In this document: positions 6,231 through 58,591 of the stretch, piece after piece
Position numbering within the stretch: the stretch's first letter is position 1
Layout: each line of letters starts with the position of its first letter
From: Chiloscyllium plagiosum
Lineage: Eukaryota
Reading direction: 5' to 3'
Length of the DNA stretch: 64,000 nucleotides
NCBI RefSeq assembly: GCF_004010195.1
Contig: NC_057755.1
Coordinates: forward strand, 1,997,803 to 2,061,802
Made by a program: the position numbers and the translations under genes
Notes under the pieces: model-generated
The model's input: only the letters and a program-made list of their open reading frames with translations
The model's database searches: none
What the model was told of the DNA's origin: nothing

Positions 6231-6719
6231 GGTTTCCGTGAAGGATTGTACCTCGGTCGCTGGTTATTATAGTTGTGGGTATGTTGGCCGAGCGGAGAAG
6301 TTGGTTCGCAGATGTTTTATCCCCTATCTAGGTGAAATCCTCTGTGCTTTGGAGCCTCCTGTAAAGCGCTGCTATACTGTGTCTTGTGGAGTTCATTTGG
6401 TTCCATTCCTACCTTTCGATTGCTGATTCCAGTAGTTTCTTGCAGTCTGAAATGTTTGTAAACCAACTTCCCGAAGTGGCCAACATACCCACAACTACAA
6501 CAATCCCCACCAATCACCCGTTATTTCTACGCTCAGGAAACAATCATCTGTTTTATACGCTACCCGCTGGTTGGTGCATCCAAATATTATACTCCTATTG
6601 GGATGTACCCACATTCGCTGGCATCCAATGGGCCAAACCATAAATATCCAGGGGACATCCAGTGGGCCAAACCATAAATATCCTGGGGATGTGTCCCCAG
6701 GTTTGTTTGATGTCTCCTG

Positions 6720-6927
6720 CTGAAAAATGTGTTGCTGGAAAAGCGCAGCAGGTCAGGCAGCATCCAAGGAGCAAGAGAATCGACGTTCTGGGAATAAGCC
6801 CTTCTTCAGGCTAATGCCCGAAACGTCGATTCTCCTGCTCCTTGGATGCTGCCTGACCTGCTGCGCTTTTCCAGCAACACATGTTTCAGCTCTGATCTTC
6901 AGTATCTGCAGTCCTCAATTTCTCCTA
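6720..6927. mobile_element. PLE family A mini inverted pair (3' ends only)
   Basis: Two inverted copies of the gctggaaaagcgcagcaggtcaggcagcatcc tail. Target duplication tttgat(g/a)tctcctg at 6706-6719 and 6928-6941. Confidence 0.8.
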
Positions 6928-7339
6928 TTTGATATCTCCTGTGGCTGGTCCTCAATGACGATAATGATCCTGATGAGGTATATCATGTTTGTGTTTCATG
7001 CAATCATGGCTATCCCAGGGGGAGATTAAGGTTGATTCTGTTGTAATCTTTGTTTAATAGCTGACTAGTTTCTACACAGTACTCTATCGTATCCATACTA
7101 ACCCTTTCCCCAGTTTTGTTTTTAAGAAAACAATAACAATTCGAAAACTTGTAATGTGAACCCCAGTTGGCATGTTCAGCTGGGTTTTCAGAGGCAGGTC
7201 GGATCTAACTTTATTATCTAGTGGTCGGGTGTGGACTATTTCAATGACCCGACCATGATGTGTTTTTAAAGACAAGTGTCGATGAAGATAGTCTGCTAAA
7301 TGGACCATCAAGTACGATAATCAATTTAACGTTAAGTAG

Positions 7340-7717
7340 GCCTTTTCTCATTGGAACAGCGAAGGATGAGGGGTTACTTGATAGAGGTTTATAAGATGAT
7401 CGGAGGAATAGATAGAGTAGACAGTCAGAAACTTTTTCCCCGGGTACAACAGATTGTTACAAGGGGACATAAATTTAAGGTAAAGGGTGGAAGGTATAGG
7501 GGAGATGTCAGGGGTGGGTTCTTTACCCAGAGAGTGGTGGGGGCATGGAATGCGCTGCCTGTGGGAGTGGTAGAGTCAGAATCTTTGGTGACCTTTAAGC
7601 GGCAATTGGATAGGTACATGGATAGGTGCTTAAGCTGGGACAAATGTTCGGAACAACATCGTGGGCCGAAGGGCCTGATTTGTGCTGTATTGTTCTATGT
7701 TCTATGTTCTATGTTCT
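7340..7717 (+). mobile_element. CR1 LINE 3' fragment
   Basis: RRMRGYLIEVYKMI...FFTQRVVGAWNALP; (tgttcta)4 tail. Confidence 0.85.
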
Positions 7718-8154
7718 ACCAATGTGAACGGTGTCAAGAGACCAGTGGTTTACATATAAATTAAAGAAATGAGGGACACCAAAGAACAGTAACCTGATTA
7801 ATGCCATCAGTGTCCACAGGAAGACGAGTTGGAAGACAGATGAGGTCCGTGTGAGCGTGCACTATCAGAAACAGTAGGACCCTGCCTTTCATGGCTGCCA
7901 GGATCCATTATATCTCCTGGATTAGTGACTGAGTGAGTTTGTTAAGTAGGCAGGCCACAGAGGTTTTGAATCCTCTGTCTCCAGAGGCATGGCCACGTTA
8001 AATCATTTCGGTTCACATGTTTGTATCTAGTCATTCCCTCCAGTGGTGAGCAATGGAATGACCGTCTGGGAGTCTAAGCTCATCTGTTTAGTCAGTACTA
8101 GACGTCTTGTGGTATTACGGACTAATGCACCTAACTTATATATCCCTGACCATT

Positions 8155-8620: not shown

Positions 8621-9402
8621 ACAGGGTGGCACGGTGGCTCAGCGACTGGAACTGTTGCCTCACAGCGCTAGGGAACTGGACTCAATTCCAGCCTCGGGTG
8701 ACTATCTGTGTGGAGTTTGGACATTCTACCTGTGTCTACACCTCCTCTGAATCAGGTTGTGAGGTGCTTCGATAACTGGTGCACACCTTGATGTTTCCGA
8801 TTGTCCTGGGGATGACATTCTGTTGTCACTTTCAAACCCTAATCCGGGTGGATACTTTCGGATCTGCAGCTACCAGGTTGTTTGCCGACTGTCTGTGAGT
8901 AGCTGCAGTGTCATAAAGTGCAAACTGTGATGAAGAGCATATTGTCCTGCTCCTTGGATGCTGCCTGACCTGCTGTGCTTTCAGTGCCACACGTTTTGAC
9001 TCTGACCCTCCAGCATCTGCACTCCTCAATTTCTCCTGTTGGTAGTTGCAGCCTGTCTGCATTCTGCAGCATGTTGATCAACACAGTCACTCTGTTCAAG
9101 GCAGGTTTCCATTTCCCAGCATACTTTAATCGTTGTCCAGCTTTTGTAACTCCAGTATAAGCTCATTATTTTCCATCATAAATTAATAATGTTGAGTGGG
9201 CCGTCCAGCCACAATATGAAATAAATCACAAACACAGTCATATGTTTCAAAGTGATTGGAGTAATAAAATAACAACTAATGCTTTGATTAACCAAGGTTT
9301 GTGTATGTGTATCAGTGCAGTAATGTACATCGTCTTACATCAGTCATCATGTGTGATTCTTTGACAGCTGTATAATTTTCAACGTTATTGTTTGGTCTTA
9401 AT

Positions 9403-11800: not shown

Positions 11801-11809
11801 GGGTGCTAA

Positions 11810-14800
11810 AGAGATTAGTTAAATAGTATTCTGTGTTCTCAGCCTTTCGCTTTGTTCAAAGGTTTCTAGGAGGTTGACAGGAGTGAGGTCAGAAATAGGG
11901 TTTCAAAGTAACAAGAATGTATCAGCAGGCAGGAAGGTGATGTGAAGTGCGTCTACTTTAACACCAGGAGCATCTGGAATAAAGTGGGTGAACTTGTAGC
12001 ATGGATTGGTAACTTGGACTTCAATGTTGTGGCCATTTCGGAGGCAGGGACAGGAATAGTTGTTGCAGGTTCCGGGATTTAGATGTTTCAGTAAGAACAG
12101 GGTAGGTGGTGAAAGCGGGGAGGTGTAGCATTGTCAACCAAAGAAGATATTATGGTGGCAGAAAGGACGTTTGAAGACTCGTCTACTGATGTAGAATGGG
12201 CTTATGTTATAAACAGGAAAGGAGAGGTCACCCTGTAGGGAGTTTTCTATAGACCTCTAAAAGATCCAGAGTTGTAAAGGAAACGATTGCAAAGATGATT
12301 CTGGATAGGATCGAGAGTGAGAGGGTAGTTGTTTAACTTTCCAAATATTGACTGGAAATGTTATAGTGCGAGTAATTTAGATCGGTCAGTTTTTGTCCAA
12401 TATGTGCAGGACGGTTTTCTGACACAGTATGTCGATAGGCCAAGAAGAGGCGAGACCACATTGTATTTGGTACTAGGTCATGAACCTGGCCAGGTGTTTG
12501 ATTTGGAGCTAGGTGAGCATTTTGGTGATAGCGACCATAATTTGGTTATGTTTACTTTAGTGATGGAAAAGGAAAAATATATACCACGGGGCAAGAGTTA
12601 TAGCTGGGGGAGCTGCAATTATGATGCGATTCGGCAAGTTGTAGGATGCATAGGATGGAGAAGAATACTGCAGGGATGGGCATAATTGAAATGTGGAGTC
12701 TATTCAAGGAACAGTTATTGCATGTCCTTGATAATTATAAAGTTAAAAATCACAGAACACCAGATTATAGTCCAACAGGTTTGACTGGAAGCACACTAGC
12801 TTTCGGAGCGCCCCTCGTTCATCTCCACAATCATCTCATGAACGAGGGGCGCTCCGAAAGCTCGTGTGCTTCCAATTAAACCTGTTTGGACTATAACCTG
12901 GTGTTGTGCGATTTTTAATTTTGTACACCCCAGTCCAACACCGGTATCTCCAAATGTTGATAAATATGTAGCTATCGGGCAGAGAGGAAGTGGTCGAACG
13001 AGGGTGCCGTGGTTTACTAAAGAAATTGAATCTCTTCTTAAAAGGAAGAGGAAGGCTTATGTTCGGATGAGATGTGAAGGCTCAGTTAGTGTGCTTGAGA
13101 ATTAGAAGCTGGTCAGGAAAGACCTAAAGAAAGTGTTAAGAAGAGCCAGGAGGGGACATGAGAAGTCATTAGCAGGTAGGATCAAGGAAAACCCTAAAAC
13201 TTTTAATAGGTCTATCAGAAATAAAAGAATGACTGGAGTAAGATTAGGGCCAATCAAGGGAAATTGTATGTGGAGTCTGAGGAAATGGGTGAGGTGCTAA
13301 ATGAATAATTTTCGTCAGTAATCACATTGGAAATAAAAAACAATGTTTTGAGGGAAATACTAAGATACAGGCTATGAGACTAGACGGGATTGAGGTTTGC
13401 AAGGTGGAGGTGTTATCAATTCTGAAATGTGTGGAAATAGTTAAGTCCACTGGGCTTGATGGAATGTATCCTAGGATTCTTTGGAAAGCCAGGGAGGAGA
13501 TTGCATAGACATTCGCTTTGATCTTTATGTCGTCATTGTCTACTGGAATAGTACCCGAAGATTAGAGGATAGCAAATGTTACTCCCTTGTTCAAGAAGGG
13601 GAGTAGACACAACTCTGGTAGATAAAGACTTACTTCAGTTGTGGCTAAGTGTGGGAAAGGGTTATAATAGATAGGATTTATAATCATCGAGAAAGGAATA
13701 CGTTGATTAGGGATAGTCAATACGGTTTTGTGAAGGGTAGGTTGGACCTCACGAACCTTATTGAGTACTTTGAAAAGGTGACCAACAGGTGGATGAGGGT
13801 AAAGCGGTTGATGTTGTGTATATGGATTTCAGTAAGGCATTTTATAAGGTTCCCCACGGTCGGCTATTGCAGAAAATACGGAGGCATATGATTGAGGATG
13901 ATTTAGCAGTTTTGGATGAGAAATTATCTAGTTGAAAGAGGATAGAAAGTGATGGTTGATGGAAAACATTCATCCTGGAGTTCAGTTACTAATGATGATC
14001 CGCAAAGATCTGTTTTGAAGCCTCTTCTCTTTGTAATCTTTACAAATGAGCTGTAGAAGGATGGGTTAGTAAATTTGCAGATGACACTAAGGTCGGTGGA
14101 GTTGTGCATGGTGCTGCAGGATGTTGCAGGTTACAGCGGGACAAAAATAAGCTGCAGAGCTGGGCTGAGAGGTGGCAAATGGAGTTTAATGCAGAAAAGT
14201 GTGAGGTGATTCACTTCGGAAGCAGTAAGAGGAATACAGAGTCCTGGGCCAATGGTAAGATTCTTGGTAGTGTGGATGAGCAGAGAGATCTCTGTGTCTA
14301 TGGTCATAGATCCCAGAAAGTCGCCACACAGGTTGATAGGGTTGTGAAGAATGCATATAGTGTGTTAGCTTTTACTGGTCGAGGGATTCAGTTTTCAGAG
14401 CGATGAGGTCATGTTGCAGCTGTACAAAACGTTGGTGCAGCCGCATTTGGAGTATTGCGTACAGTTCTGGTCGCTGTATTATGGGAAGTACACAGCAGCC
14501 TTTGAACCTGTACAGAGGTGATTTACCAGGATGTTGTCTGGTATGGAGGGAAGGTTGCATGGGGACAGGCTGAGGGACTTGAGGCTGTTTTAATTCATTT
14601 GAAGAAGCTTAAAAGGTGACTTAATAGACATATATAAGATAATCAGAGGGTTAGATAGGGTGGACACTGATTTCTAGCACAAGAAGATATAGCTTTAAAT
14701 TGAGAGGTGAAAGATATAGGACAGATATCAGAAGTAGTCTCTTTACTTAGAGAGAAGTAAGGGCGTGGAATGCCCTGCCTGCAACAGTAGTAGACTCGGC

Positions 14801-17600: not shown

Positions 17601-17983
17601 ACAGTTGCTCTAGAATTCTGAAGTTAAGGTTCTGAATTCGCTTTTATTTATTTATATTTGTTTTGAGAAAAATATTACTTAGTAGAAATTCCAGCTATTG
17701 TTATGGTCAGTATCAGCTTCAGGCGCTGTATCAGAGTGCTCACTCACAGATAAGATATCCCAAGTAACTTGTAAAACTAAATTAGCAAGAAATACAGAGC
17801 TATAGCAGTGTGCAGTACAACAGCTCACAAAGTGATCTACAAAATGAATTATTGAATGGTTGGACAACCTAAGCAAAATAAAGTTCATCACTGAAAAGAA
17901 TATCAAAAGATATTTCGATATTCATGTGAAATAATGTAAGTATTGTTGCTTGAAAACAAGTTGCAATCCATATTTGAACACTA

Positions 17984-18012
17984 ATAGGATCAGACTAATC
18001 CAGTCTTTGGGG
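17984..18012 (+). promoter_or_regulatory. Conserved upstream element of GPCR gene A containing TAATCC (K50 homeodomain-type site)
   Basis: ataggatcagactaatccagtctttgggg matches the reverse complement of 58563-58591 at 28/29 nt, at a similar distance (~225-230 nt) from the ATG. Confidence 0.5.
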
Positions 18013-18234
18013 TATTCACACACAGTCTTGTACAGCAATCATTAAAATAAACCTGTTGACGTAACCTGTTTGTTCAAAATGATAAAAAAAGAACAGAATG
18101 ATTAGTCAGTTTCCCAATAGAGATACCAGCAGACAATATAAATAATGTCTCTCAAGCTGACTCATAGACAATTCTGAGAGAATTCTCCAATTCCGACAGT
18201 TTTCCAGCAGGGAAGGAAGAGGTTATTTGGCAAA

Positions 18235-18301
18235 ATGCATCTTCTAAGGGAAAGGGTCGAAAAAGTGTACGACACCGTCCTCACCATTGTTGGTATTCCT
18301 G
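18235..18301 (+). CDS. Exon 1 of GPCR gene A (class A orphan GPCR, GPR139/GPR142-like)
   Basis: ATG at 18235 reads MHLLRERVEKVYDTVLTIVGIP plus one base, then G|gtaaat donor (phase 1). It is homologous to exon 1 of paralog B and supplies the first half of TM1 missing from ORF 20433-21311. Confidence 0.88.
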
Positions 18302-19833
18302 GTAAATCCTGGAACAGCTTAACTTTGATAAAGCTCTGCATTTAATCAAAATTACCTCCAATGTATAACAGATATTTATTTTTTTTCCATTTAGCAAGGC
18401 AATTACTGATGGGCATATGGTAGTGTCCGCAATAACTGAGTTTAAAATGAACAGCTTGTCAGTTAGGAGATTCCTCAGTAATGTGCAGCATTGTCTGTTT
18501 CTCTATACTGTGCAGAATGGGATTGCCCTGAGGCCACACTGATGGGGTTTAGCTGAGCACCAGCCGTGGCTGGTGTAGAAAGTGTTTCAAACGACCTCTC
18601 TCTCTCTCACTCTCTCTCTCTCTCACTCTCTCTCTCTCTGTGTTGGAGTCCAAAGCCTGCTATTGACCAGATGGGTTTTGTAACAACCCACCTCTTCGTG
18701 ATACCTGGTGTTTTCCACTCCTTGGACATGAAGGGATTTTTGTGTGGATCTTGATCAGGCAGGTCTCTCCAAATGGGAGCCCAGGTAAAACAGATGGACA
18801 ATGGATGGGATGACCAGGTTCTTATGGAATGATAAGTGAGGGTCATCACAAGTGCTGTCAATCATCTAGTGTGTACTGGTCAGTCAGTGGATGTGTGGGG
18901 GTATGATAATTGTGAGGACAGGTCACTGGTAGGGTTGTTCAGCACAGGGCTCCAATTATGATGCGTAATATTGAATTATTTGATTGTGAAAAAGCGTATG
19001 TCCCGTGTCATTTGCACAGTGCTTTGGTGCAGGGTCTAAAGAGACAACTACTGAGATCTGGAGTATAGTGTCAGCAGCTCTCCCACAGAGGATCAAACAA
19101 CTTTGTCCAATAGGATGTTTCCTACCTTGCCCTTTGTTGCTGTTACCCTTTGATGTTCCCTGAACAATAATGGGTTATGTGAAGGTGTTCCCACGTACCT
19201 TTGTTTGCGATTGTTGTTTGTTTTTTGGCTATCAATTCAGATTTGTATTTATTACTATCTCATGTGGTACAATTCCAGTGACCTCCATGGAGAATTACTG
19301 GGTAAATTATGGGGACCCCGAGCCCCAGAGGGCTCCGAATCTAGGAGGGTGATCTCTGTATACAAGGAAAGAGCCTAGGAGAGGCGCTTGGGTGTGTGCA
19401 GGCAGAAAACTATGCTGAATCCGAGATAGAGAGTCTGATTTCTCAAACAAAACTTTACAATGCTGCATGGATTCAGCTTTTGTTTGGGTGGAGGCTGTGG
19501 TGGACAGTCTTGGTCAGATGGGCGAGTCCGTGCCAAATGTTGAAGTTCTTGTGATTGTAATGGGAATCCAACCTGAGATATGGTGGTTGGATTCACTCAT
19601 GAATATCTTCATAGTTCAGAATATCACGATATTAAATGCTGCACTTGAGAAAGGGACTCTCTCGATTATTTGTTCATCCATTCCTGTCCACTGTGGAGTG
19701 ATTCGATGTGTCGTTTTTATGGTATGGATATACAATGCTTGAGCAATCTGTGGTTTGAGATTCCGAAATCGAATACAGCTATTGCAATCAGTGTCTGTGT
19801 CAGGTGTCTCCCGTTCTTGGTTTTGTTGATCCC

Positions 19834-20128
19834 AGATTACTTACAGTGTGGAAACGCCGAACAAATCCACACCGACCCGCCGAAGCGTATAGCACCCAGA
19901 CCCCTACATTTACCCCTTCACCTAACACTACGGACAATTTAGCATGGTCAATTCACCTAACCTGCACATTTTTGGATTGTGGGAGGAAACCGGTGCACCC
20001 GGAGAAAACCCACGCAGACACGGGGAGAATGTGCAAACTCCACACAGAGAGTCGCCTGAGGCGGGAATTGAACCTGGGTCTCTGGTGCTGTGAGGCAGCA
20101 GTGCTAACAACTGTGCCACCGTGCCGCC
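19834..20128 (-). mobile_element. tRNA-derived SINE (HE1/V-SINE-like) in the intron of GPCR gene A
   Basis: Head ggcggcacggtggcacagttgttagc (A box) and gggttcaattccc (B box), core tgtgtggagtttgcacattctccccgtgtctgcgtggg, and aatct tail. Confidence 0.88.
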
Positions 20129-20424
20129 ATGAGTCTGAGTAATCTATAAAACAGGTAAAATATATCTCTGCTGATCCCCCCAAAACAATTGAAGACATGA
20201 CTGTGTTTCTGCGAGAAATACTTTGCTAATGATTTTCCCTTTGTCATTTATAAGCGCAAATGATTTATTTTGAGAGAGCTTGTTGCTGTGGATCATATTC
20301 TTTAGACTACATCTGACATGGAAAACAACTATCTTTGTGCCATTACTTACAACCACAGTTCAAGTATGGAGAATGTTTGATTAATAAATTCAAGTATCTG
20401 TTCTTTCCTTTTTCTCTCTAACAG

Positions 20425-32511: not shown

Positions 32512-32591
32512 CTGGGGAACTCTGAACCAATGAGTTTGTCAGCATTGGTGGGTACAGAAATAAAGTAACATCAACAAATACGCAGAGAAGC

Positions 32592-34779: not shown

Positions 34780-37700
34780 GATATAAGATGCTATTGAGAG
34801 CTTCTTCATTTCAGATGTAATATCATTGAAGCCATACAGTAGACACTGAGTGGGATGACGGGTAGATTTAGAGAAGGGATTACACATCAGGAACAGTCAG
34901 ATAGATGATTGTCTGTCAACAAAGGGAAGAGGGTCGTACATACGTCTCCTGCGGCTATTTCTCTCTCTGTATTTTTCAGGTGCTGCTGAAAGAGTCTCTC
35001 AAAGGTAAATAGAAATAGTAACCAGACCTTGGGCGCTAAGGACCAATCTAATGTTCAGTGGGTTTGTCAAGATTTAAAAGAATAATTGTTATCTTGGGTT
35101 CTTTTGAAAGGGGTTAAAAATGTGTTGCTGTAAAAGCGCAGCAGGTCAGGCAGCATCAAAGGAGCAGGAGAATCGACGTTTCGGGCATAAGCCCTTCTTC
35201 AGGAATGAGGAGGGTGTGCCAAGCAGGCTAAGATAAAAGGTAGTAAGGAGGGACTTGGGGGAGGGGCATTGGGAATGCGCTCAGTGGAAGGAGGTTAAGG
35301 TGAGGGCGATAGGCTGGAGAGGGGGTGGGGGCGGAGTGGTCTTCAAGAAGATTGCAGGTCAAGAAGGCGGTGCTGAGTCTGAGGGTTGGGCCTGAGAAAA
35401 GGTGGGGGAAGGAGAAATGAGGGAGTTGGAGAAATCTACATTCATCCCTTGTGGTTGGAGGGTTCCAAGATGGAAAATGAGGCGCTCTTCCTCCAGGCGA
35501 CATGTTGCCATAGTCTGGCGACGGAGGAGGCCAAGGACCTGCATGTCCTTGGCTGAGTGGGAGGGAGAGTTAAAATGTTCAGCCACGGGGCGATTGGGTT
35601 GGTTGGTGCGCGTGTCCCAGAGGTGTTCTTTGAAATGTTCCGCAAGTAGGCGGCCTGTCTCCGCAATGTATAGGAGGCCACATCGGGTGCAGCAGATGCA
35701 GTAAATGATGTGTTTGGAGGTGCAGGTGAATTTCTGATGGATATAGAAGGATCCCTTCGGGCCTTGGAGGGAAGTGAGGGAGAGGTGCGAGCGCAAGTTT
35801 TGCATTTCTTGCGGTTGCAGGTGTAGGTGCCAGGAGTGGAGGTTGGTTTGGTGGGGGTTGTGGATCTGACAAGAGAGTCGCGGAGGGAATGGTCTTTCCG
35901 AAACACAAATAGGGGAGGGAAGGGAAATATATCGTTGGTGGTGGGGGCTATTTGGAGGTGGCGGAAATGACGAAGGATGAACCGATGTATCTGGAGGTTG
36001 GTGGGGTAGTAGGTGAGGACCAGTGGGGTTCAATCCTGGTAGTGATTGGAGGGGCGGGGAGCGGGAAGTATAGGAGATGCGGTGGAGAGCATCGTCAACC
36101 ACCTCTGAGGGGAAATTGCGGTCTTTGAAGAAGGAGGCCATCTGGGGTTGTTCGGTATTGGATTTGGTCCTCTTTTGACAGGGGCACAGGCAGGAGATTC
36201 GGCAGCAGTGATTGTGAGTCTAGGAGATTGTGTTGCCTTTCTGGTGCCAGGGTAAATGAATTATCAAAACGTGTGAAGCAGGTTGTCAAAGGGGAGAGTG
36301 AGAAACTGGAAGTTATTGTATACATTGGGAGGAGTGGCATATTCAGGGAATGTGTTGAGACTTTGCAGAGTGAGTCTAAGAGGTTAGGTAGAAGATTAAA
36401 GTACAGCACAAGTAATAATCTCGGATTTGCTTCTGATGCCAATTCGGATGAGGGAAGGAATAAAAAGAGTGTACAGATAAATCAATGGCTGAAGAGCAGT
36501 TGCAATGTGCAGGGATTCCGTTTCTTGGATCATCCGGGATATTGTCTGGGACAGAACAAACATGTTTAAGAAAGGTGGATTTCACCTGAACTGGAAAGGG
36601 ACCGATATCCTGGTGGGAAAATCTAATAGTTCTAATTCGAATGCCTGTAAGTTGTTAGGGTTGGATTGGGGACTTCCTTAATAACAATGAAAGTAGAAAG
36701 AAAAATGAGGATGGTTGTGACTCAGATAAGAACAAGTTAATTCGAAAAAAAAAACAGTCAGGAGCAAGTCAGAGAACCAAATAATTCTGGGGCATTTTCT
36801 GTGTTTATTGCAGTCAGAGGTCTTACAGATCAGGCAGATGAACTCAGGGCATGTTTAGGAACATGGGAGTGTGCTGTTGTATTTATTACAGAAAACTGGT
36901 TGTGGGCAGGACAAGACAGGCTGCTCAATGTTCTAGGTTTTAGACGTTATGGGAAGGATAGGAAGAGAGACAAGACAAGGTGGGGGAGTAGCATTTTTGT
37001 TTCCGGAAATCATTCCTACTACACTGAGCGTAGCTGTGACTGAAAGGACATTTAGTGAAAATCTATGGTTTGAAATTAGAAATAAGAAAGGGATGGTCAT
37101 CCTCATGGGATTGGACTACAGGCATCCCCAACAATCAGAAGGAAATACAGAAGCAAATCTTTCGAGCTCTTAAATATATGTAAGACTATTAAATTTGTAA
37201 AAGTAGGGGATTTTAATTTTCCGAACGCTGACTGGGACTGCCACAGTGTTAAAGGCTTGGATCATGAAGAACTTCCAAAATGTGTTCAAGAAAAGTTCTT
37301 TACCAATACATTATTGTTCCAGCTGGAGAAAGAGCAAAACTTGAATGTCTTAGATCCCTGCGATGTGGAAGCAGGTCGTTCAGCCTCACAAATCCACAAT
37401 ACACCTTGGAAGAGGATCCCACCTGGACCAATACCCTTATCTTATATTTCACATGGGGTAGCATACCTAATCTGCACATCCTTGGATACTATGGCATAAT
37501 GGCCAACCAATCTAACTTGCACATCCCTGGATACTGTGATGTAATGGCCAACCAACCTAACTTGCACATCTTTCGACTGTGGAAGAGAATCAGAGCATCT
37601 GGAGGAAACCCACACAGACTCAGGGAGCTTTTGTAAACCCCACAGAAGCTCCATCACTGCAGGGGAGGATCGGAAGTGGGTCTCTCCTGCTTTGAGGCAA

Positions 37701-38640: not shown

Positions 38641-40327
38641 TTAGAACATAGAACAGTACAGCACAGAACAGGCCCTTCAGCTCATAATGTTGTACCGACC
38701 ATTGATCCTCATGCATGCACCCTCAAATTTCTGTGGCCATATGCATGTCCAGCAGTTTCTTAAATGTTCCCAATGACCTTGCTTCCACAACTGCTGCTGG
38801 CAACGCATTCCATGCTCTCACAACTCTCTGTGTAAAGAACCCGTCTCTGACATCCTCTCTATACTTTCCTCCAGTCAGCTTAAATATTGACACCGCGTGA
38901 TAGCCATTTCTGAGCTGGGAAATAGACTATAACTTTCGACTCAATCTATGCCTTTCATTATCTTGTATACCTCATTTAAGACCCCTCTCCTCCTCCTTTT
39001 CTCCAATAAAAAACGTACATGCTCAGTCACGCTCTCTTCATAAGGTAAGCCCTCCAGTCCAGGCAGCATCTTGGTAAACCTCCTCTGAACCCTCTCCAAA
39101 ACATCCACACCTTTCCTATAATAGGGCGTCCAGAACTGGAGCAATATTCCAAGTGTGATCTAACCAAAGTTTTATAGAGTTGCAACAAGGTCTCTTAAAC
39201 TCAATACTCCTGCTAATGAAAGCTAAAACACCATATGTTTTCTAAACAAGCATGTCCACTTGGGTGGCCATTTTAAGGGATCGATGTACCTGCACACCAA
39301 GATCCCTCTGTTCCTCCACACTGTCAAGAATCCTATCCTTAATCCTGTGCTCAGCTTTAAATTTCACCTTCCAAAATGCATCACCTCGCATTTATCCAGG
39401 TTGAACTCCATCTGCTACCTCTCAGCCCATCTCTGCATCCTGCCAATGTCACGCTGCAGCCTACAACAGCCCTCTATACTGTCAACGACACTTCTAACCT
39501 TTGTGCCATGATTCGGAGATGCCGGTGTTGGACTGGGGTGTCCAAACTTAAAAATCACACAACACCAGGTTATAGTCCAACAGGTTTAATTGGAAGCACA
39601 CTAGCTTTTGGGAGCGACGCTCCTTCGTCAGGTGATTGTGGAGGGCTCGATCGCAACACAGAATTTATAGCAAAAATTTGCAGTGTGATGCAACTGAAAT
39701 TATACATTGAAGAATTGATTGTCTGTTAAGCCTTTTATCTGTTAGAATACAGTGATAGTTTCACTTCTTTCATGTGTAAATCACAAAATCGTTTTTTTAA
39801 AAGTTGCATTCTCGGGTTAGCTGTTAACAATGGTGATAGCTAGACAATATGTTGAAGGTGTTAGCCCCCTGTGTTCTCTGTCGATGACCTGATGTTTAGA
39901 TTGATTCCAATCTAAAAAGTGAAATAACAGAGTTTTACATAAATTCATGCAGTTTTTGAGCTCAGAATTCGACAAGAATCTATGTGGTGTTTGAGCAAAG
40001 TGCAATGTAACTTTGTACCAAAAGTTTCACCACACACAATATATATGTGTGCATGTGGGTCTTTGTCTGCCTGTGTGTCTGTCTGTCTGTCTGGGGTGGG
40101 GGTTGTGAGTGTGAAAAAGTGTGTGTGTGTGTGTGTGTGTAGTGAGTGCAGAGTGTCTTAAGTCTGTAAGGGGGTGTATGTGTGGGAGTCTGTGTGTCTA
40201 TAAGATAGTGTGTGGATGTCTGTGTGCACGTCTGTGTGTATCTGTGTCCGTGTGCATGTGAGAGTGTGTGCGTGTGTAGGAATATCTGTGTGTGTGTGTG
40301 TGTGTGTGTGTGTAGTGCAATGGTGAT

Positions 40328-41636
40328 CACCTGTAATGTGACATGAACCCAAGGTCCCGGTTGAGGCCCTCCCTATGGGTACCGAACTTAGCTATCAGCC
40401 TCTGCTCAGCCACTTTCCTCTGCTGCCTATCCCGAAGTCCACCTTGGAGGATGGTCACCCGAAGGGTCGAGGCAAAGTGTCCTGGACCACTGAAGTGTTC
40501 CCCAACTGGGAGGGAAGCCTCCTATCTTTTGATTGTTGTGCGGTGTCGTAGCCTTTGCTCAGTTTCCCCAATGTACCATGCCTCTGGGCAACCCTGCCTG
40601 CAACGTATAAGATAGACAATGTTGGCTGAGTCACATGAGTACCTGCCATGTACACGGTGGGAGGTATTCCCACGCGAAATAGTGGTATCTCTGTCCACAA
40701 TCTGACACGTTTTGCAGCGTCCACCGTGACAGGGTTGTATGGAGTTGTCCTGAGAGCCAGGCAGTGTGCTACGAACAATGATCTGTTTGAGATTTGGCGG
40801 TTGTTTGAAGGCAAGTAGTGGAGGTGTGGGGAAGGTCTTGGTGAGGTGCTCATCTCCATTGATAATGTGTTGTAGGTCACGAAGAACATGGCGTAATTTT
40901 TCAGCCCCTGGGAAGTACTGAACAACGAAAGGTACCCTGTCAATTGCAGCCCATGTCTGTCTCCTGAGGAGGTCATTACGGTTCCTTGCTGTGGCACGTC
41001 GGAACTGGCGGTCGATGAGTTGAACATTGTACCGGGTCCTTGTGAGGGCATCCTTGAGTACTTCCAGGTATCCGTCACGTTCCTCCTCATCTGAGCAGAA
41101 CCGGTGTTTGCGTAGGGCTTGTCCATAGGGAATGGCTGTTTTAATATGTTTTGGGTGGAAGCTGAAGAAGTGTAGCATTGTGAGGTTGTCTGTGTGTTTG
41201 CGGTATAGTGTGGTGCTGAGGTGTCCGTCCTTGATGGAGACTCACGTGTCCAAGAATGAGACAGACAGTCGAAAGTAGTCCATGGTGAGTTTGATGGTGG
41301 GATGAAAATTGTTGATGTCACTGTGTAGTTTTATCAGTGACTCCTCGCCATGGGTCCAGAGGAAGAAAATGTCATCAATGTACCTGGTGTACAATGTCGG
41401 TTGGAGATCCTGCATAGAGAAGAAATCTTGTTCGAACCTGTGCATAAAAATGTTGGCATATTGGGGTGCAAATTTGGTCCCCATGGCTGTTCCGTGTGTC
41501 TGGATGAAGAATTGCTTGTCAAAGGTGAAGACGTTATGATCGAGGATAAAGCGAATGAGTTGTAGGATGGTGTTTGGAGACTGGCAGTTGTTGGTGTTGA
41601 GTACTGAGCCTATTGCCGCGATGCCATCATTGTGGG
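40328..41636 (-). pseudogene. Inverted partial copy of the Penelope RT/GIY-YIG ORF
   Basis: ORFs 41242-41643 and 40522-41178 are near-identical to the plus-strand copy, share its internal TGA and carry a private TAG. Confidence 0.88.
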
Positions 41637-41659
41637 ACAACATTGTGTGACAAAATTAT

Positions 41660-43837
41660 CACTGCGGGGAAGTCTATTGTCAACTTATTGGACCACACCC
41701 TTCGACCGGAAGAGATTGAGGTCCTGAGTAGGGGTCTCAACTTCTGCCCCACCACCAAAATGGACCCGTTGGTTTTGGCAGCAGACACAGAGGAGTTCGT
41801 CAGACGAATGAGACTCCGGGAATTCTTTCAAGGTGCCGGCATTGATCCAACTGAGCCCACTGATGAACTAGAACAGTCATCACAGGGATCTGTAGAGGAG
41901 CGACCAAAGAAGGCCGCTGCCCTGGGCTTGACATGTATGCTCAAACTGTCAGGAAATATATAAATGCCAGATTCATCATCCGTACCCATAAGGTAGAGCA
42001 AAACACCACCCGTTCCCAACGCAATGCCATCCAGGCTCTGAAAACCAATCACACCATTGTCATCAAACCAGCAGATAAAGGAGGAGCCGTTGTCATTCAG
42101 AATAGAATAGGTTACGGCAAGGAAGTGTACCGACAACTGAACCACCAGGAACACGACAGGCAACTACCAACTGATCCGACCAAAGAACATATCCGAGAAT
42201 TAAACACACTGATCAGAACTTTGGATCCAGTCCTTCAGAGCTCCCTACACGCACTCATCCCACGTACTTTTCGTGTAGGCGACTTCTACTGCCTTCCAAA
42301 GGTACACAAAGCCAACACACCGGGACGTCCCATCGTGTCGGGAAATGGGACCCTATGTGAGAATCTCTCTGGCTATGTGGAAGGCATCTTGAAACCTATT
42401 GTACAGGGGATCCACAGCTTCTGTCGCGACACTACGGATTTCTTACAGAAACTCAGTGCCCATGGACCAGTCGAACCAGGAACATTCCTCGTCACAATGG
42501 ATGTTTCCGCACTCTACACCAGCATCCCCCACAATGATGGCATCGCGGCAACAGCCTCAGTACTCAACACCAACAACTGCCAGTCTCCAAACACCATCCT
42601 ACAACTCATTCGCTTTATCCTCGATCATAACGTCTTCACCTTTGACAAGCAATTCTTCAACCAGACACACGGAACAGCCATGGGGACCAGATTTGCACCC
42701 CAATATGCCAACATTTTTATGCACAGGTTCGAACAAGATTTCTACTCTATGCAGGATCTCCAACCGACATTGTACACCAGGTACATTGATGACATTTTCT
42801 TCCTCTGGACCCATGGCGAGGAGTCACTGATAAAACTACACAGTGACATCAACAATTTTCATCCCACCATCAAACTCACCATGGACTACTTTCGACTGTC
42901 TGTCTCATTCTTGGACACGTGAGTCTCCATCAAGGGCGGACACCTCAGCACCACACTATACCGCAAACACACAGGCAACCTCACAATGCTACACTTCTCC
43001 AGCTTCCACCCAAAACATATTAAAACAGCCATTCCCTATGGACAAGCCCTACGCAAACACCGGTTCTGCTCAGATGAGGAGGAACGTGACGGACACCTGG
43101 AAGTACTCAAGGAAGCCCACACAAGAACGGGGTACAATGTTCAACTCATCGACCGCCAGTTCCGACGTGCCACAGCAAGGAACCGTAATGATCTCCTCAG
43201 GAGACAGACATGGGCTGCAATTGACAGGGTACCCTTCGTTGTTCAGTACTTCCCAGGGGCTGAAAAATTACGCCATGTTCTTCGTGACCTACAACACATT
43301 ATCAATGGAGATGAGCACCTCACCAAGACCTTCCCCACACCTCCACTACTTGCCTTCAAACAACCGCCAAACCTCATACAGATCATTGTTCGTAGCAAAC
43401 TGCCCGGGTCTCAGGACAACTCCATACAACCCTGTCACGGTGGACGCTGCAAAACGTGTCAGATTGTGGACATAGATACCACTATTACGCGTGGGAACAC
43501 CTCCCACCGTGTACATGGCAGGTACTCATCTGACTCAGCCAACATTGTCTTTCTTATACGTTGCAGGCAGGGATGCCCAGAGGCATGGTACATTGGGGAA
43601 ACTGAGCAAAGGCTACGACACCGCACAACAATCAACAGACAGGAGGGTTCCCTCCCAGTTGGGGAACACTTCAGTGGCCCAGGACATTCAGCCTCGGACA
43701 TTCGGGTGACCATCCTCCAAGGTGGACTTCGGGACAGGCAGCAGAGGAAAGTGGCTGAGCAGAGGCTGATAGCTAGGTTCGGTACCCATAGGGAGGGCCT
43801 CAACCAGGACCTTGGGTTCATGTCACATTACAGGTGA
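41660..43837 (+). pseudogene. Disrupted Penelope RT + GIY-YIG endonuclease ORF (5'-truncated)
   Basis: ORF pieces 41613-41963, 41933-42922 and 42986-43837, with a frameshift near 41910 and an in-frame TGA at 42920-42922 (FLDT*VSIK). Confidence 0.88.
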
Positions 43838-44494
43838 TCACCATTGCACTACACACACACAGATATTCCGACACACACACACACACACTCTCATATGCAC
43901 ACGGACACAGATACACACAGACGCGCACACAGACATCCACACACAGACTCCCACACATACACCCCCTCACAGACTTAAGACACTCTGTACTCACTACACA
44001 CACACACACACACACTTTCTCACACTCACAACCCACACCCCAGACAGACACACACACACAGGCAGACAAAGACACACATGCACACATATATATTGTGTGT
44101 GGTGAATTTTTTTGGTGCAAAGTTACATTGTACTTTGCTCAAAAAACACATAGATTCATGTCGAACTCTGAGCTCAAAGACTGCATGAATTTATGTAAAA
44201 CTCTGTTATTTCACTTTTTAGATTGGAATCAATCTAAACATCAGGTCATCGACAGAGAACACAGGGGGCTAACACCTTCAACACATTGTCTAGCTATCAC
44301 CATTGTTAACAGCTAACTCGAGAATACAATTTTAAAAAAAGTTTGTGATTTACACATGAAAGAAGTGAAACTATCACTGTATTCTAACAGATGAAAGGCT
44401 TAACAGAAAATCAATTCTTCAATGTATAATTTCAGTTACATCACACTGCAAATTTTTGCTATAAATTCTGTGTTACAATCGAGCCCTCCACAAT

Positions 44495-44530
44495 CACCTG
44501 ATGAAGGAGCGTCGCTCAGAAAGCTAGTGT
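44495..44530 (+). ncRNA. Minimal hammerhead ribozyme motif in the PLE family B terminal repeat
   Basis: cac-CTGATGA-a-GGAGC-gtc-GCTCa-GAAA-g-CTA-gtg contains the CUGANGA and GAAA cores, stem II, an NUH triplet and a short cac/gtg stem I. A mutated mirror copy lies at ~39598-39634. Confidence 0.7.
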
Positions 44531-47500
44531 GCTTCCAATTAAACCTGTTGGACTATAACCTGGTGTTGTGTGATTTTTAACCTTTGTGTCGTCTGCAAAC
44601 TTGCTGACCCATTCTTCAATCCCCTTATCCAAGTCATCAATAGAAAATTACAAACAGTAGAGGTACAAGAACAGATCCGTGTGGAACACCACTCACCACA
44701 GACTTCCAGGCCGAATATTTTCCTTCAACTACCACTCGCTGTCTTCTGTTGGCCAGCCAATTCTGTATCCAAACAGCTAAGTTCCCCTGTATCCCATTCC
44801 TCCTGACCTTCTGAATGAGCCTACCATGGGGAACCTTATCAAATGTCATATACACCACAACCACAGCTCGACCCTCATCAACTTTTCTAGTCACATCCTC
44901 AAAGAACTCGGTAAGATTTGTTAGGTATGATCTGCCCCTCACAAAGCCATGTTGACTGCATTCAATCAATCCATGCTCTTCCAGATGGTTATAACTCCTA
45001 TCCCTCAGAATCCTTTCTAAAACTTTGCAGACAACAGACCTGAGACTTACTGGTCTTTAATTGCCGGAGATTTCCCTATTTCCTTCCTTGCAGAGAGGAA
45101 TTACATTTGCCTCTCTCCAGTCCTCAGGTACGACTCCAGTGGAGAGTGAGGATGCAAATATCTTCGCAACTGGCGAAGCAATCACATTTCTCGTTTCCCA
45201 AAGCAGCCGAGGACAAATCTCGTCCGGGCTTGGCGACTTGTCAATCTTAACGTTTGACAAAATTTTCAGCACATCAGCTTCCTCTATCTCTATCCATTCC
45301 AGTCTGCTCACCTGCTCTTCAAAGGTTTCATTCATTGCAAAGTTCATTTCTTTCGTAAAGACAGAAGCAAAAAACTCATTTAGGGCTTTCCCGACCTCCT
45401 CAGACTCCACACACAAGTTCTCTATGCTATCTCTGATCGGCCCTACTCTTTCTTTGACCATTCTCTTATTCCTCACATAAGTGTAAAATGCCTTTGTGTT
45501 CTCCCTAATCCGTTCTGCCAAGCCTTTCTCGTGCCCCCTCTTGGCTCTCCTCAGACCATTTTTGAGCTCCTTCCTCGCCTGCCTGTAATCCTCTAGTGAT
45601 GAGCTTGACCCTAACTTCCTCCACCTTATGTAAGCTACCTTCTTCCTTTGGACGAGAAGCTCCACCACTCTCTTACCCCTTCTTGCCTGTCTCAGAGGGA
45701 CATATTTATTCATCACTCGCAACAACTGTTCCTTAAACAGTCTCCACATGTCTATAGTGCCTTTACCATTGAACAATTGCTCTTATTCCATGCTTCCTAA
45801 ATCATGACTAATCGCATCATAGATTCCTCTTCCCCAATTAAATATCCTCCCATTAGGATCCTCCTAATCCTCTCATTCTCTATAGATATGTAGAATGTGA
45901 GGCAGTTGTGGTCATTATCACCAAAATGCTCTCCCACCACAGGATCAGATATCTGCCCCGGCTCCTTTCCGAGCACCAAGTCTAGAATGGCCTCATCCCT
46001 TGTCGGTCTGTCAACGTACTGAGTTAGGAAACCCTCCAGAAACAGACCTTACATTCAAATCTTCTGCTCGAAGGAGGTTCCAATCAATATTATGAAAGTT
46101 AAAGTCACCCATTACAACAACCCTACTACATCCACACTTTTCCAAAATCTGTCGACCTATGCTTTCTTTAATCTCCCTGCTGCTATTGTGGGCCTGTAGT
46201 AAATCCCTAACGAGGTAACTGTTCCCTTGCTGTTCCTAATTTCCACCCATACTGACTCGGTAGGAAGATCTTCCTTGACAATGGAAGTTTATATATCTGT
46301 GATAGCCTCTCTGATTAGTAGTGATACACCCCCTCCTCTTTTCCCCCCTCCCTATTCTTTTCAAATGTTCTAAACCCTGGAACATCCAGCAACCACTCCT
46401 GTCCCTGAGAAACCCATATCTCTGATATGACCACAACATCATAGCACCAGGTACTGATCCATGCTCTAAGTTCATCACTTTTATTCCTGATACTCCTTGC
46501 GTTAAAGCAAACACACTTTAACTGGTCCCTTTCTTCCTTTCCAGGAATATCCTTCCCACTAGCTGCTCTATTTCTTGATATTGCCTCATCTGCATCAACT
46601 CTCACCTCTGGTATACCGCTCAGGTTACCACCCCCCAGCCATACTAGTTTAAACCTTCTCGAACTACTTGAGCAAACCTTCCACTCAGGACATTGGTCTC
46701 CTTCCAGTTCAGATGCAACCCATTCTCTATGTACAGGCCCCACCTTCCCCAGAAGGCATCCCAATTATCTACATATCTGAAGCCTTCCCTCCTACACCAG
46801 CTGTACAGCCACGCATTAGACTGCGCCCGTTCCCTGTTCCTTGCCTCGTTATCTCGTGGCACCGGTAGTAATCTAGATAACACTATTCTATTCGTCTAGC
46901 TTTGCAGCTTCCATCCTAACTCCCTGAAATCACTTATTATATCCTCAATCCTTTTTTTTGGCTATGTCATTAGTGCCAATATGTAACACGATTTCTGGCA
47001 GTTCGCCCTCCCCATTTTTGGCCTTATACACACGATCGGAGACGTCTCAAACCCTGGCACCAGGGATGCAAAATACCTTCTGGGAATCTTGATCCTGACC
47101 ACAAAATCTCCTGTCGATTCCCCTAACTATTGAGTCCCCTATCACGACTACTTTTCTATTCTGCCCCCTTCCCTGCTTTGCCACAGTATCAGGCTCAGTG
47201 CCAGAGAACTGACCACTATGGCTTTCCTCTGGAGGTCATCCCCCCCAGCAGTATCCAAAACTGTATACTTATTGCTGAAGGGAATGTCCACAGGGGATCT
47301 CTGCACTGCCTGCCTGTCCCCTTTCCTCCCCCTAACTGTAACCCATCTATCCTTGTCCTGAGCCTTAGGAATGACCAACTCCTGGTAACTCCTCTCAGTT
47401 ACCCCCCCAGTCTCCCGAATGATCCGTAGTTCATCCAGCTCCAGCTCCAATTCCCTAAAACGGTTTTCACGGAGTTGGAGTTGGGTGCACTTCCTTGCTG

Positions 47501-48574
47501 ATATATATGGTCACTGCCTTCCTTCCCGGCTGCCCCTCTGGTCCGCGTCACTTCCTCCGCTGCTCCCGCTCCTTCTGTGAAAGAGAAAATACTGCTGCCC
47601 GCTAACGGTATTTTTTTTTAAATGGAGTTTAATTTTGATAAATGTGAGTTGCGTTCAATTCTGGTCTCCCTATTATAGGTAGGATGCTATTAAACTTGTA
47701 AGGGTTCAGAAAAAAATTACAAGGATGTTGCTGGGATTGGAGGATTTGAGCTACACGGAGAGGTTGAATGGGCTGGGGCTGTTTTTCTGCAGTGTCGGAG
47801 ACTGGAGTGGGGGAGGGGTGGGGGATTAGTTGACCTTACAGAGCTTTATAAAATTATAAGGGATATAGGTAAAGTAAATAGACAAAATTTGTTCAGTGAA
47901 GAGGAGTCCAAAGCTAGATAGATTTAAGCTGAGAGAGGAAATGTTTAACATGACCTGAGGGGGAACTTTCTCACATAGAGTGCTGTGCGTGCATGGAATG
48001 AACTGCCAGAGGAAGTGGTGGATGCTGGTACAATTACAGCATTTAAAAACATTTGGATGGGTGTATATTTCAAAAAGGGTTTCCAGGGATATGGGCCGAC
48101 TGCTGGCAAAAGATATCAGATCAAATCAGGATATCTGGTTGGCATGGATGAGTTGGACCAAAGGGCCTGTTTCCACAGTATAAAACTCTGTCTCTGGAAA
48201 TGTACTTAAAAAAACGTATATCATGGCAACTTACACTGACCCACAGAAGGTGATATTAGGTCATTTGGCAATAATTTGGTCGAGGAGGTAAATTTCAAGG
48301 AGTATTATAATTCAGAGAGGGAGCTGGGTAATCGGAAGAACTGAGAGTTGGGATCCAGAAGCGAACACAGCTCAGTCGCGCAAGATTGTTCCCATTGTCA
48401 GAGTTAGTGTTGTTTCTGGCATTCTTCCCTGCCATTTCATTCTGGCCTTGCATGATTTGGATGTGAACATAGGAGTTGAGAGTGTGATGCTGCAAAACAC
48501 AGCAGGTCAGGCAGCATCCGAGGAGCTGGAGAATCGACGTTCTGTGCAAAAGCCCTTCATCATAAATAAGCCTG

Positions 48575-49506
48575 AACTTTGGAGCTATAGTTAGTAATTT
48601 TGCAGCTGACACCAAACTTAGAGTTGTAGTGGACAGCAAAGAAGTTTGCCTCAGATTACAATGGAATCTTAATCAGGTGGGCCAATAGACTGAGGAGTGG
48701 AGTTTAATTTCGATAAAGCAAGGTGCTGCATTAAAAAAAAACAAATCAAAGCAGGACTTCTACACTTAATGTTGAGTTCTCGGGAGTGTTGCTGAACAAA
48801 GACACCTTGGAGTGCAGGTTCACAGTTCCTAGAAGGAGGAGTTGCAGGTAAATAGGATAGTAAAAAAGACCTTTGGTATGCTTTCCTTTTTTGGTCTGAG
48901 TACAGAAGTTGGGAGATCATGTTGCGTCTGTACAGGACATTGGTTAGGGCATTATTTGGGATATTTCTTGCAATTCTAATATCCTTCCTTTCGGAAGAAC
49001 ATTGTGAAACGTGAAAGGGTTCAGAAAAGACTTCTAAGTGTGTTGCCATGGTTGGAAGATTTGAGCTATAAGGAGAGGCTGAATAGGCTGGGGCTGTTTT
49101 CCCTGGAATGTCAGAGGCTGAAGGTGACCTTATAGAGATTTAGAAAATCCTGAGGGGTATAGATAGGGTGAATTTGCAAGGTAATTTCTCTTGGGTGGAG
49201 GAAGACCAGAACTGGAGGGCATAGGTTTAGGGTGAGGGGAAAAATTTAAAAGGGATCTACCGGGCAACGTTTTTACACAGAGGGTGGAGTGTGTATGGAA
49301 TGAGCTGCCAGAGGAAATGGTGGAAGGTGATATAATTCCAACATTTAAAAGACACTTGGGTGGGTATATGAACATGAAGGATTCAAAGGGATATGAAACA
49401 AATGCTGGCAAAAGAGCCTCAAGTAGGATAGGATATCTGGTCGGCATGGACTGTTTTGGACCAAAGGGCTTGTTTCCGTGGTGTATATCTCTTTGACTAT
49501 ATGACT
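48575..49506 (+). mobile_element. CR1 LINE 3' fragment
   Basis: ADTKL-like motif, WNELPEEMVE, ctatatgactc tail. Confidence 0.78.
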
Positions 49507-49749
49507 CGAAACCGAAATTCTATGAAATCTGTCATATCTTTGACTATCACACCAGCTGGAAATATTACACTACTGCAGAATATTTAACACTTTCATAGAG
49601 ATTTTACAAAACATGATTTAAACCACTCCAAAAAATCAAGTAAATCAATGGATGACTTTGGAACATTTTGAATAGATGAATGAGAAGTTAAAATTGAGAA
49701 TGTGGAGGACAACATGCCTGTATAGGTCACTGTAGTCAGTGTATAATCA

Positions 49750-50635
49750 TAGATTTATAGAGTCATCGAGGTGTACAGCATGGAAACAGATTTTTCGGTC
49801 CAACCCGTCCATGCCGACCAGATATCCCAACCGAATTAGTCCCAACTTCCAGCACCCAGCCCATATCCCTCCAAACCCTTCCCATTCTTTTCCCGATCCA
49901 AATTCCTCTTAAATGTTGTGATTGTACGAGCCTCCACCATTTCCTCTGGCAGCTCATTCCATTCACATGCCACCCTCTGTTTGAAAATGTTGTCCCTTGG
50001 TCTCTTTGATACCTTTCCCCTCTCACCCTAAACCTATGTCCTCTAGTTCTGGACTATTCCACCCCAGGGAAAAGACTCTATTTATCCTATCTATGCCCCT
50101 CATAGTTTTGTAAACCTCTGTAAGGTCATCCCTCAGCCTCGGCGCTTCAGGGAAAACTGGTCCAGTCTGTTCAGCCTCTCCCTATAGCTCAAATCCTCCA
50201 AGGAGAAGTGAGGATGCTGGAGTACCAGAGATGTTGGAGTACCAGAGTTGAAAAATGTAGTGCTGGAAAAACACAGCAGGCCAGGAAGCATCCGAAGAGC
50301 AGGTGAATTAACGCTTCAGACATAAGCCCTTCTTCAGGAATCTTTTGAAAAGAGTCCATGAGGGGTCAGTCGGTTCCGTAGGCAGGTGCTGAGGAAGGAG
50401 ATGTGGCTGTGGTAGCGAGTCTGTTTCAGGACATGACTGAAGAAATTCAGGACAAAGCTGAATGCCCGAAACGTCGATTCTCCTGCTCCTCGGATGCTAC
50501 ATGGCTTGCTGTGTTTTTCCAGCACCACATTTTTCAACTCAAATCCTCCAACCCTGGTGACATCCTTGTAAATCTTTTCTGAACCCTTTCAAGTTTCACA
50601 ACATCTTTCCGATAGGAAGGAAACCAAAATTGGCA
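49750..50635 (-). mobile_element. CR1 LINE 3' fragment (interrupted by a PLE pair)
   Basis: Near-identical in structure to 9403-9900. Confidence 0.8.
50202..50537. mobile_element. PLE family A inverted pair with an extra internal segment, inserted in CR1
   Basis: Perfect 14-bp duplication ctcaaatcctccaa at 50188-50201 and 50538-50551, with inverted tails. Confidence 0.82.
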
Positions 50636-58562: not shown

Positions 58563-58591
58563 CCCCAAAGACTGGATTAATCTGATCCTAT
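58563..58591 (-). promoter_or_regulatory. Conserved upstream element of GPCR gene B containing TAATCC
   Basis: Paralogous copy of 17984-18012. Confidence 0.5.

Follow-up and report, generated by a model that had tools for sequence, protein, structure and literature searches.

One tailed and one short arm: paired inverted ends of Penelope-like insertions in a shark genome window

How does a retroelement come to leave two copies of its own 3' end, facing outward and unequal in length, at a single insertion site? The question is raised by a stretch of 64,000 nucleotides (nt) of the Chiloscyllium plagiosum genome (contig NC_057755.1, positions 1,997,803 to 2,061,802; hereafter the window), in which a first-pass annotation had described seven such insertions of Penelope-like elements (PLEs). 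PLEs are the retroelements closest to telomerase, and the origin of their inverted, tailed insertions is still called undefined in the published work consulted. The architecture itself is already published, and the annotation had in part acknowledged it as an established signature. What is added here is the strict coupling of one priming site to each end of an insertion, a set of lesions shared by both arms of one insertion, pairs whose arms do not overlap and a quantitative discrimination among models. The strictness, a 37-nt spacing common to two families and the lesions found in both arms separate three kinds of model: self-priming, two-RNA and one-RNA. Shark genomes contain tens of thousands of copies, which makes these models cheaply testable, and the result gives a sharp prediction for an existing in vitro system. 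The explanation that we put forward, with roughly even confidence, is twin priming at two fixed sites, probably on one RNA.

Inverted pairs and target duplications

Pairs and arms were mapped by self-comparison of the window and by alignment of element ends, with boundaries partly read by eye. Positions within an element are counted backwards from the last tail base, which is 0, and the tail occupies -36 to 0. The window holds 12 inverted pairs from two Penelope-like families, A and B; the 3' ends point outward in 12 of 12, and 12 of 12 consist of one tailed and one short arm. All seven insertions known beforehand (6720, 12739, 24575, 31986, 33581, 39507 and 50202) are present with the outward ends and the tailed and shorter arms described for them, and five further pairs lie at 4288, 28110, 30076, 30782 and 53768. 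The annotation's view that one arm keeps the full terminus holds as far as the presence of a tailed arm goes; at 33581 that arm is only the last 29 nt of the element, in a satellite with a unit of 54 base pairs (bp). Six arms stand alone, two tailed (5629, 8929), three short (35114, 48473, 52889) and one an old family-B piece (29370), while a partner search over seven lone arms found one partner (30782; score 34, reached by none of 300 background stretches). If each arm chose its site independently and at even odds, asymmetry in all 12 pairs would have a probability of about 0.5^12 (0.5^11 = 0.0005 was computed for the first 11 pairs); the even odds were taken from the lone arms, which split 2 tailed to 3 short.

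Numbering the insertions I1 to I18 along the window, duplications of the target flank eight of the 12 pairs. Among those of family A, I3 (6706-6941) has a short arm on the minus strand (6720-6810) and a tailed arm on the plus strand (6811-6926) between duplication copies at 6706-6719 and 6928-6941, with 1 nt of overlap between element and duplication. The same layout is seen in I6 (24562-24773; short arm 24575-24629; tailed arm 24630-24759, 5' end at -130; duplication 24562-24574 and 24761-24773; 2-nt overlap), in I11 (31976-32523; short arm 31986-32253, 33 nt short; tailed arm 32254-32513, tail 32477-32513; duplication 31976-31985 and 32514-32523) and, inside the satellite, in I12 (33566-33710; short arm 33581-33667; tail-only arm 33666-33694; duplication 33566-33580 and 33696-33710; 4-nt overlap). 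The tailed arm is the minus-strand one in I9 (30063-30197), where a tail-only arm (30076-30110) and an 8-nt hammerhead piece (30111-30118), both on the minus strand, are followed by a plus-strand short arm (30120-30183) between copies at 30063-30075 and 30185-30197. This is also the case in I16 (50188-50551), inside a repeat that we take to be CR1-like, with its tailed arm at 50202-50341 (5' end at -130), a filler of 120 nt, a short arm at 50462-50537 and a duplication at 50188-50201 and 50538-50551 (3-nt overlap); no source for the filler (50342-50461) was found within the window. Family B contributes I5 (12728-12967; short minus-strand arm 12739-12822, 37 nt short; tailed plus-strand arm 12823-12956; duplication 12728-12738 and 12957-12967) and I14 (39495-44588; tailed minus-strand arm 39507-41636; short plus-strand arm 41637-44577; duplication 39495-39505 and 44578-44588; 4-nt strict overlap).

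No duplication was called for three family A pairs: I1 (4288-4413), whose tail-only minus-strand arm (4288-4317) and short plus-strand arm (4321-4413) do not overlap, I7 (28110-28328; short minus-strand arm to 28204, tailed plus-strand arm 28206-28328, both 5' ends at -130) and I18 (53768-53929; tailed minus-strand arm to 53833, short plus-strand arm 53834-53929, 5' end at -130). The family B pair found by partner search, I10 (30782-30878), has a short minus-strand arm at 30782-30812 (37 nt short) and a tailed plus-strand arm to 30878. The lone tailed arm I2 (5617-5766; minus-strand arm 5629-5754, 5' end at -130) carries a duplication (5617-5628 and 5755-5766) and has no partner arm, and the lone short arm I13 (35100-36184; family A, minus-strand arm 35114-36170) holds a decayed coding piece for linker and GIY-YIG endonuclease between copies at 35100-35113 and 36171-36184. 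I4 (family A, tailed, plus strand, 8929-9037) and I15 (family A, short, minus strand, 48473-48570) are lone arms for which no duplication was called; I17 is a lone short family A arm on the plus strand (52889-52985, 5' end at -130), and I8 is the old family-B-like piece (29370-29454, plus strand).

The duplications were scanned in 17 insertions, leaving out I8, against a null of 272 mismatched boundary pairs. A score of at least 8 was reached in 10 of the 17 and in 6 of the 272, and a score of at least 10 in 7 and in none, respectively; the ten are the eight pairs and the lone arms at 5629 and 35114. The two copies match at 13/14 positions for 6720, 10/11 for 12739, 12/13 for 24575, 13/13 for 30076, 9/10 for 31986, 13/15 for 33581, 11/11 in the core for 39507, 14/14 for 50202 and 13/14 for 35114. 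Duplications of 10-15 nt, as earlier claimed, are thus borne out for all seven original insertions by a scan that beats its null; the scan gives 10-15 nt throughout, or at most 16 when a mismatched edge base is counted. Sister copies of the host repeats within the window served as empty sites. In all 10 comparisons, which cover four insertions (four sister repeats for 50202, two for 39507, one for 12739 and three satellite units for 33581), a single copy of the target gives a better fit than none or two, so the duplications arose at insertion. AT makes up 55.6% of the ten duplications and 56.3% of the window, which shows no AT-rich target preference, and no target motif is evident by eye.

When the 5' extents of the two arms are compared, seven pairs have a short arm that goes further, four have a tailed arm that does so, and one is tied. 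The arms overlap in 9 of 12 pairs, by up to about 2.1 kilobases (kb) in I14 and by 227 nt in I11, and are non-overlapping in 3 of 12. The tailed arm ends 29-35 nt in, beside the short start, in I1, I9 and I12. Arms of a pair differ by about 4-18%; the identity of an arm to its own partner ranks 1, 1, 9, 2 and 1 of 19, with one pair that could not be scored, and this ranking is weakly informative.

Short ends, families and the terminal repeat

The short arms had been said to stop some 30-40 nt early. A consistent short arm is indeed found, and its measured range is 33-44 nt with a mode of 37. Counting from minimum to maximum element extent, 37-36 nt are missing in I3, 37-35 in I6, 37-36 in I9, 37-33 in I12, 37-34 in I16 and 44-40 in I14, with single values of 37 in I5 and I10, 38 in I13 and 33 in I11. 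A length of 37 nt fits 7 of these 10 measurable ends and does so in both families. The measurements leave out I7, I15 and I18 (family A, boundary not fixed by a duplication), I1 and I17 (subfamily tail not wholly in the window) and the old piece I8. As the lone short arm I13 carries its own 14-nt duplication, the short site primes by itself.

The open reading frame (ORF) of family B encodes a reverse transcriptase (RT; RVT_1, E = 2.7e-9), then a CxxC linker and then a GIY-YIG endonuclease. Across most of the C-terminal part its relatives show 38-74% identity, and several of them have a GIY-YIG domain (PF01541). The broken copy in I14 (41867-43837, plus strand) has a stop at 42920-42922 and a 15-nt deletion in the endonuclease, both common to the other I14 arm. 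Family A is represented by an endonuclease piece only (35114), with the same linker and 32% identity over 123 amino acids to the family B endonuclease. A CX2-5CxxC zinc-finger-like linker ahead of GIY-YIG is given for the Neptune and Nematis clades (Craig et al. 2021, PMC8557442; here and below, statements about published work refer to the available parts of each paper), and by that definition both families would be of Neptune/Nematis type, judging from their sequences. The linker zinc finger is present in A and B, whereas Penelope and Poseidon are recognised by its absence. The annotation's description of two unrelated families therefore does not stand at the level of clade or endonuclease, although the tails of A and B do not align.

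Despite the unlike tails, the layout of the terminal repeat matches between the families. A hammerhead core lies at -126 in A and -124 in B and its cleavage triplet at -99 and -95, as a pattern match only; an Rfam search at the gathering threshold returned no hammerhead match. In I11 a fixed 5' boundary at A 32383 (-130) is followed by a motif like the minimal hammerhead (32383-32416, plus strand; core -126, triplet ending at -99), judged by eye against the definition of Cervera and de la Pena (2014, PMC4209133). Like the minimal hammerheads of PLEs in that paper, both families have the CUGANGA core, a long helix II and a palindromic minimal helix III, here the 4-nt palindrome of the dimer type; unlike them, most copies here are decayed, and the motifs are candidate hammerheads. 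A helix of 7 nt in A and 9 nt in B pairs the tail at about -27 to -19 with a stretch near -80 to -67 and encloses the short end; it is significant in B (under 1% of shuffles) and not in A (8-11%). Whole-end folds are not clearly better than shuffles (z of 0.06, -1.96, -1.73 and 0.85).

Seven family A arms in the window end exactly at -130. The A at 32383 sits in an initiator-like pyrimidine context. A T-rich motif lies 25-32 nt upstream of the boundary (region 32351-32387), and together the two may form a candidate promoter within the family A terminal repeat. Cleavage products of the hammerhead were considered as templates and are disfavoured, since the 5' ends accumulate at -130 rather than -98. 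In family B the last three tail bases are ATG.

Reads from four runs (of 24 listed) and three organisms were aligned to one tailed arm, that of I11. The family is very abundant, with 53,951 contigs matched in run X1. The tail end at 32513 is among the top loose ends in all four runs (884, 723, 518 and 191 records) with unrelated flanks, and 32512 is also a top loose end in three. The 5' end at 32383 recurs in all four as well (242, 262, 213 and 72 records; agreement 0.31-0.39). Raw RNA depth drops about eightfold upstream of 32383, part of which may reflect subfamily divergence, and no pile of RNA starts or ends was seen in the aligned reads. Peaks at 32468, 32472 and 32477, among the best 24 of 1169 loose-end rows, are other subfamilies parting from the reference. 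Six opposite-strand joints, among 15 of the 60 joints, connect 32381-32407 to 32433-32484, the same inner positions as the arm junctions in the window and as head-to-head junctions would give. The reads support the fixed tail and 5' ends; they give no genome-wide counts of pair types.

The same reads show what follows the tail. The flank consensus begins with A in four runs, as in four window copies, and with CAG after 32512 in three runs, so the element may continue with an AG after a pyrimidine run, resembling a splice acceptor. No full-length copy lies in the window, and head-to-tail joints from the tail to -130 occur in 6, 1 and 1 contigs of three runs; such joints amount to tandem units of 130 nt (32383-32513).

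How the two arms could be made

In the twin priming that we propose, the element protein, probably as a dimer, would nick the two target strands 10-15 nt apart and leave two 3' overhangs; direct extension of both target ends together with a duplication implies 3' overhangs of the duplication's length. The two overhangs would prime from separate fixed starts, one lying at the tail end, the other some 37 nt 5' of it. Each start would serve once per event, which is most simply explained if a single RNA carries the two. A copy begun at the tail end that stops near the other start would yield non-overlapping arms, and one that displaces the first complementary DNA (cDNA) and runs on would yield overlapping arms. 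Pairing of 1-4 nt between primer and template would fine-tune the short start, and many arms would run off at the fixed 5' boundary just before the hammerhead, probably the start of the RNA. A more specific version is offered tentatively, as something we would put below an even chance. Here the dimer would load two RTs 37 nt apart on one RNA, flanking the conserved helix beside the hammerhead, and each would receive one end of the 10-15-nt staggered cut. The tail would then be a ruler set by the protein, the inverted pseudo-long terminal repeat (pLTR) the product of the second enzyme, and the stubs of 95 and 130 nt run-off (strong-stop-like) copies made from the module's 5' copy.

I14 bears on the question of the template. 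Its arms share 12 amino-acid changes, one of them a stop, and a 5-residue endonuclease deletion over 334 columns, and these shared changes are unseen in 12 close relatives, bar one poorly aligned row; changes private to one arm number 9 and 10. Most simply, both arms would have been copied from one RNA that was defective beforehand and was mobilised in trans. The mismatches between them are not significantly patchy (p=0.11) and give no sign of a conversion tract. At six near-fixed sites the right arm of I11 departs from the family, and the left arm follows it at none of them (among 40 of 190 variant rows), so homogenisation of arms is not general.

Published elements supply much of the frame. 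In endonuclease-bearing PLEs the same head-to-head, 5'-truncated inverted copy, a tail of 31-37 nt at one end, a short duplication and an upstream hammerhead are described. Arkhipova et al. (2013, PMC3846280) report a 31-bp tail on one inverted pLTR with duplications of 8-10 bp and propose self-priming, Craig et al. (PMC8557442) a tail of 30-40 bp often at one end only, and Schostak et al. (2008, PMC2377424) a 34-bp repeat at the ORF start with one or two copies at the 3' end. These accounts differ from ours in duplication length (8-10 bp against 10-15 nt) and in invoking self-priming or resolution by the endonuclease; what the window adds is the strict 12/12 rule and one 37-nt spacing in two families. 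The closest biochemical parallel is the Poseidon protein of Anolis (PAc; Frangieh et al. 2024, PMC11167929), a predicted dimer that cuts and extends both strands in vitro from two starts that are internal to the RNA and bound the tail. Hammerhead cleavage is unneeded there, and the arms here cross the cut site. PAc differs in belonging to a clade without the CxxC linker and in preferring AT-rich targets, unlike the shark duplications; in the available text, target homology is not reported and the two sites are not paired with the two ends of one insertion. The annotation's inference that both sides of a staggered cut prime agrees with this protein's behaviour, with the duplication geometry and with the duplication around I13. 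Twin priming and the proposed dual priming of L1 (Meyer et al. 2010, PMC2837659) similarly use the 3' overhang of a second nick to prime a second RT and leave inverted fragments between duplications. However, L1 has a poly(A) first primer, a variable internal site and non-overlapping fragments, whereas the shark insertions have a fixed second site and, in 9 of 12 pairs, overlapping arms. No statement of one-site-per-end coupling for PLEs was found in the literature searched, most subscription papers being outside its coverage.

Several observations weigh against twin priming on one RNA. If two enzymes moved along one RNA as a convoy, the short arm should be the one that extends further in the 5' direction, and the 7-to-4 split among the 11 untied pairs lends this only weak support; displacement of a cDNA over 2 kb is unproven. 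The shared lesions of I14 could stem from a single conversion of a whole arm. Four of the 12 pairs (4288, 28110, 30782 and 53768) lack a callable duplication, and any genome-wide peak at the short end is masked by the subfamily mismatch at 32468-32477. The available text of PMC11167929 reports that the two strands do not differ in start site and that there is no target homology, although for a Poseidon element and at the population level. Additionally, the sample is one window with old copies, their arms about 82-96% alike, and boundaries partly set by eye.

The alternative that survives best, though we consider it unlikely, is dual priming by an asymmetric dimer in which each subunit carries its own RNA and is forced onto a different start. 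Both RNAs could be transcribed from a single locus, or they could be separate units within one tandem transcript, and the dimer-type hammerhead may be what pairs them. Overlapping arms as in I14 and I11 would then need no strand displacement; the palindromic 4-nt helix III in both families (compare PMC4209133) and the ending of both I7 arms at -130 also count in its favour. However, an extra rule is needed for the 12/12 asymmetry, the defective RNA behind I14 must be caught twice when mobilised in trans, and tailed arms stopping beside the short start (I1, I9, I12) are not predicted.

We regard as quite unlikely a fold-back, in which the cDNA primed at the tail end copies itself, the endonuclease cuts or resolves the return strand about 37 nt before its end and central deletions follow later. 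Asymmetry and shared lesions are explained directly by it, and it draws on the self-priming proposed in PMC3846280 and the endonuclease tail resolution in PMC8557442. It requires the tailed arm to contain the short arm, yet in 7 of 12 pairs it is the short arm that extends further 5' (by 890 nt in I14). The arms of I1 and I12 share nothing, and each misfit pair needs a separate later deletion. Additionally, the lone short arm I13 has its own duplication, and the short start works directly in vitro (PMC11167929).

The annotation itself had favoured a course in which one end primes at the RNA end and the other internally by microhomology; this resembles L1 twin priming, and we judge it very unlikely. 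Its three cited cases of microhomology are present. Scored by eye, the strict overlap between element and duplication at nine junctions is 1, 0, 2, 0, 0, 4, 0, 4 and 3 nt, a total of 14 nt against 6.0 expected for random targets (p=0.012), with four junctions of at least 2 nt (p=0.041). At 44578, where 9 of 10 nt of the target pair around a single bulge, the start is displaced in the 5' direction to 40-44 nt short; this seems to be the one case in which pairing has moved the start. Overlap is absent at 4 of the 9 junctions, however, and the short ends keep to 33-44 nt, with a fixed 37-nt position in two families with unlike tails. We conclude that pairing at the short end is modestly enriched and not required, tuning the site rather than choosing it. 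Nor does priming at the RNA end agree with studied elements, where the starts are both internal (PMC11167929) and the fly and rotifer tail is the start of the next ORF (PMC2377424, PMC3846280).

An assembly artefact or chance juxtaposition of repeats is scarcely credible: the great abundance of the family and the gaps in the assembly would favour it, but the arms of a pair differ, the duplications exceed their null, read joints match the arm junctions in the window, and the single target in sister repeats already refutes it for four insertions.

Two irregular insertions bear on how copying proceeds. The tailed arm of I9 jumps from about -34 to the 8-nt piece at 30111-30118, which ends exactly at the hammerhead cleavage triplet, and the jump skips just the stretch that its short arm covers; a similar skip (32413 to 32485) occurs in one contig of run X13. 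In this single case the RT may have jumped on its template, either across the first cDNA or to the end of a cleaved RNA. The tailed arm of I16 carries the initial part of the tail as a 17-nt tandem repeat (50213-50247) that begins at the short-end boundary, and repeated tails are also seen in run X1 (32511 to 32479, 32513 to 32482 and 32514 to 32479). By analogy with telomerase, these repeats look like stutter at the boundary.

Setting of the window

The window is repeat-rich eukaryotic DNA, and among named proteins the nearest relatives of the element protein come from sharks, at most 90% identical over parts. Many of the window's repeats, which are seen in the self-comparison, are CR1-like. 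To judge by word share and by the divergence of arms, the insertions appear to predate the split from organism B. No matches came from pattern scans of metagenomic and viral contigs, and a profile scan of metagenomes gave 27 pattern matches, none confirmed, and no related loci. A further family A coding piece at 58832-58975 (plus strand) is ended by an assembly gap. A 167-bp tandem duplication (96%) at 5722-6055 takes in the 5' end of the lone arm I2, and the 54-bp satellite at 32593-34604, with about 32 units, is interrupted by I12. Two single-exon seven-transmembrane receptor ORFs, at 20388-21311 (plus strand) and 51744-52709 (minus strand), are 77% alike and lie within an old inverted duplication that includes their flanks (17770-21691 against 51358-58814).

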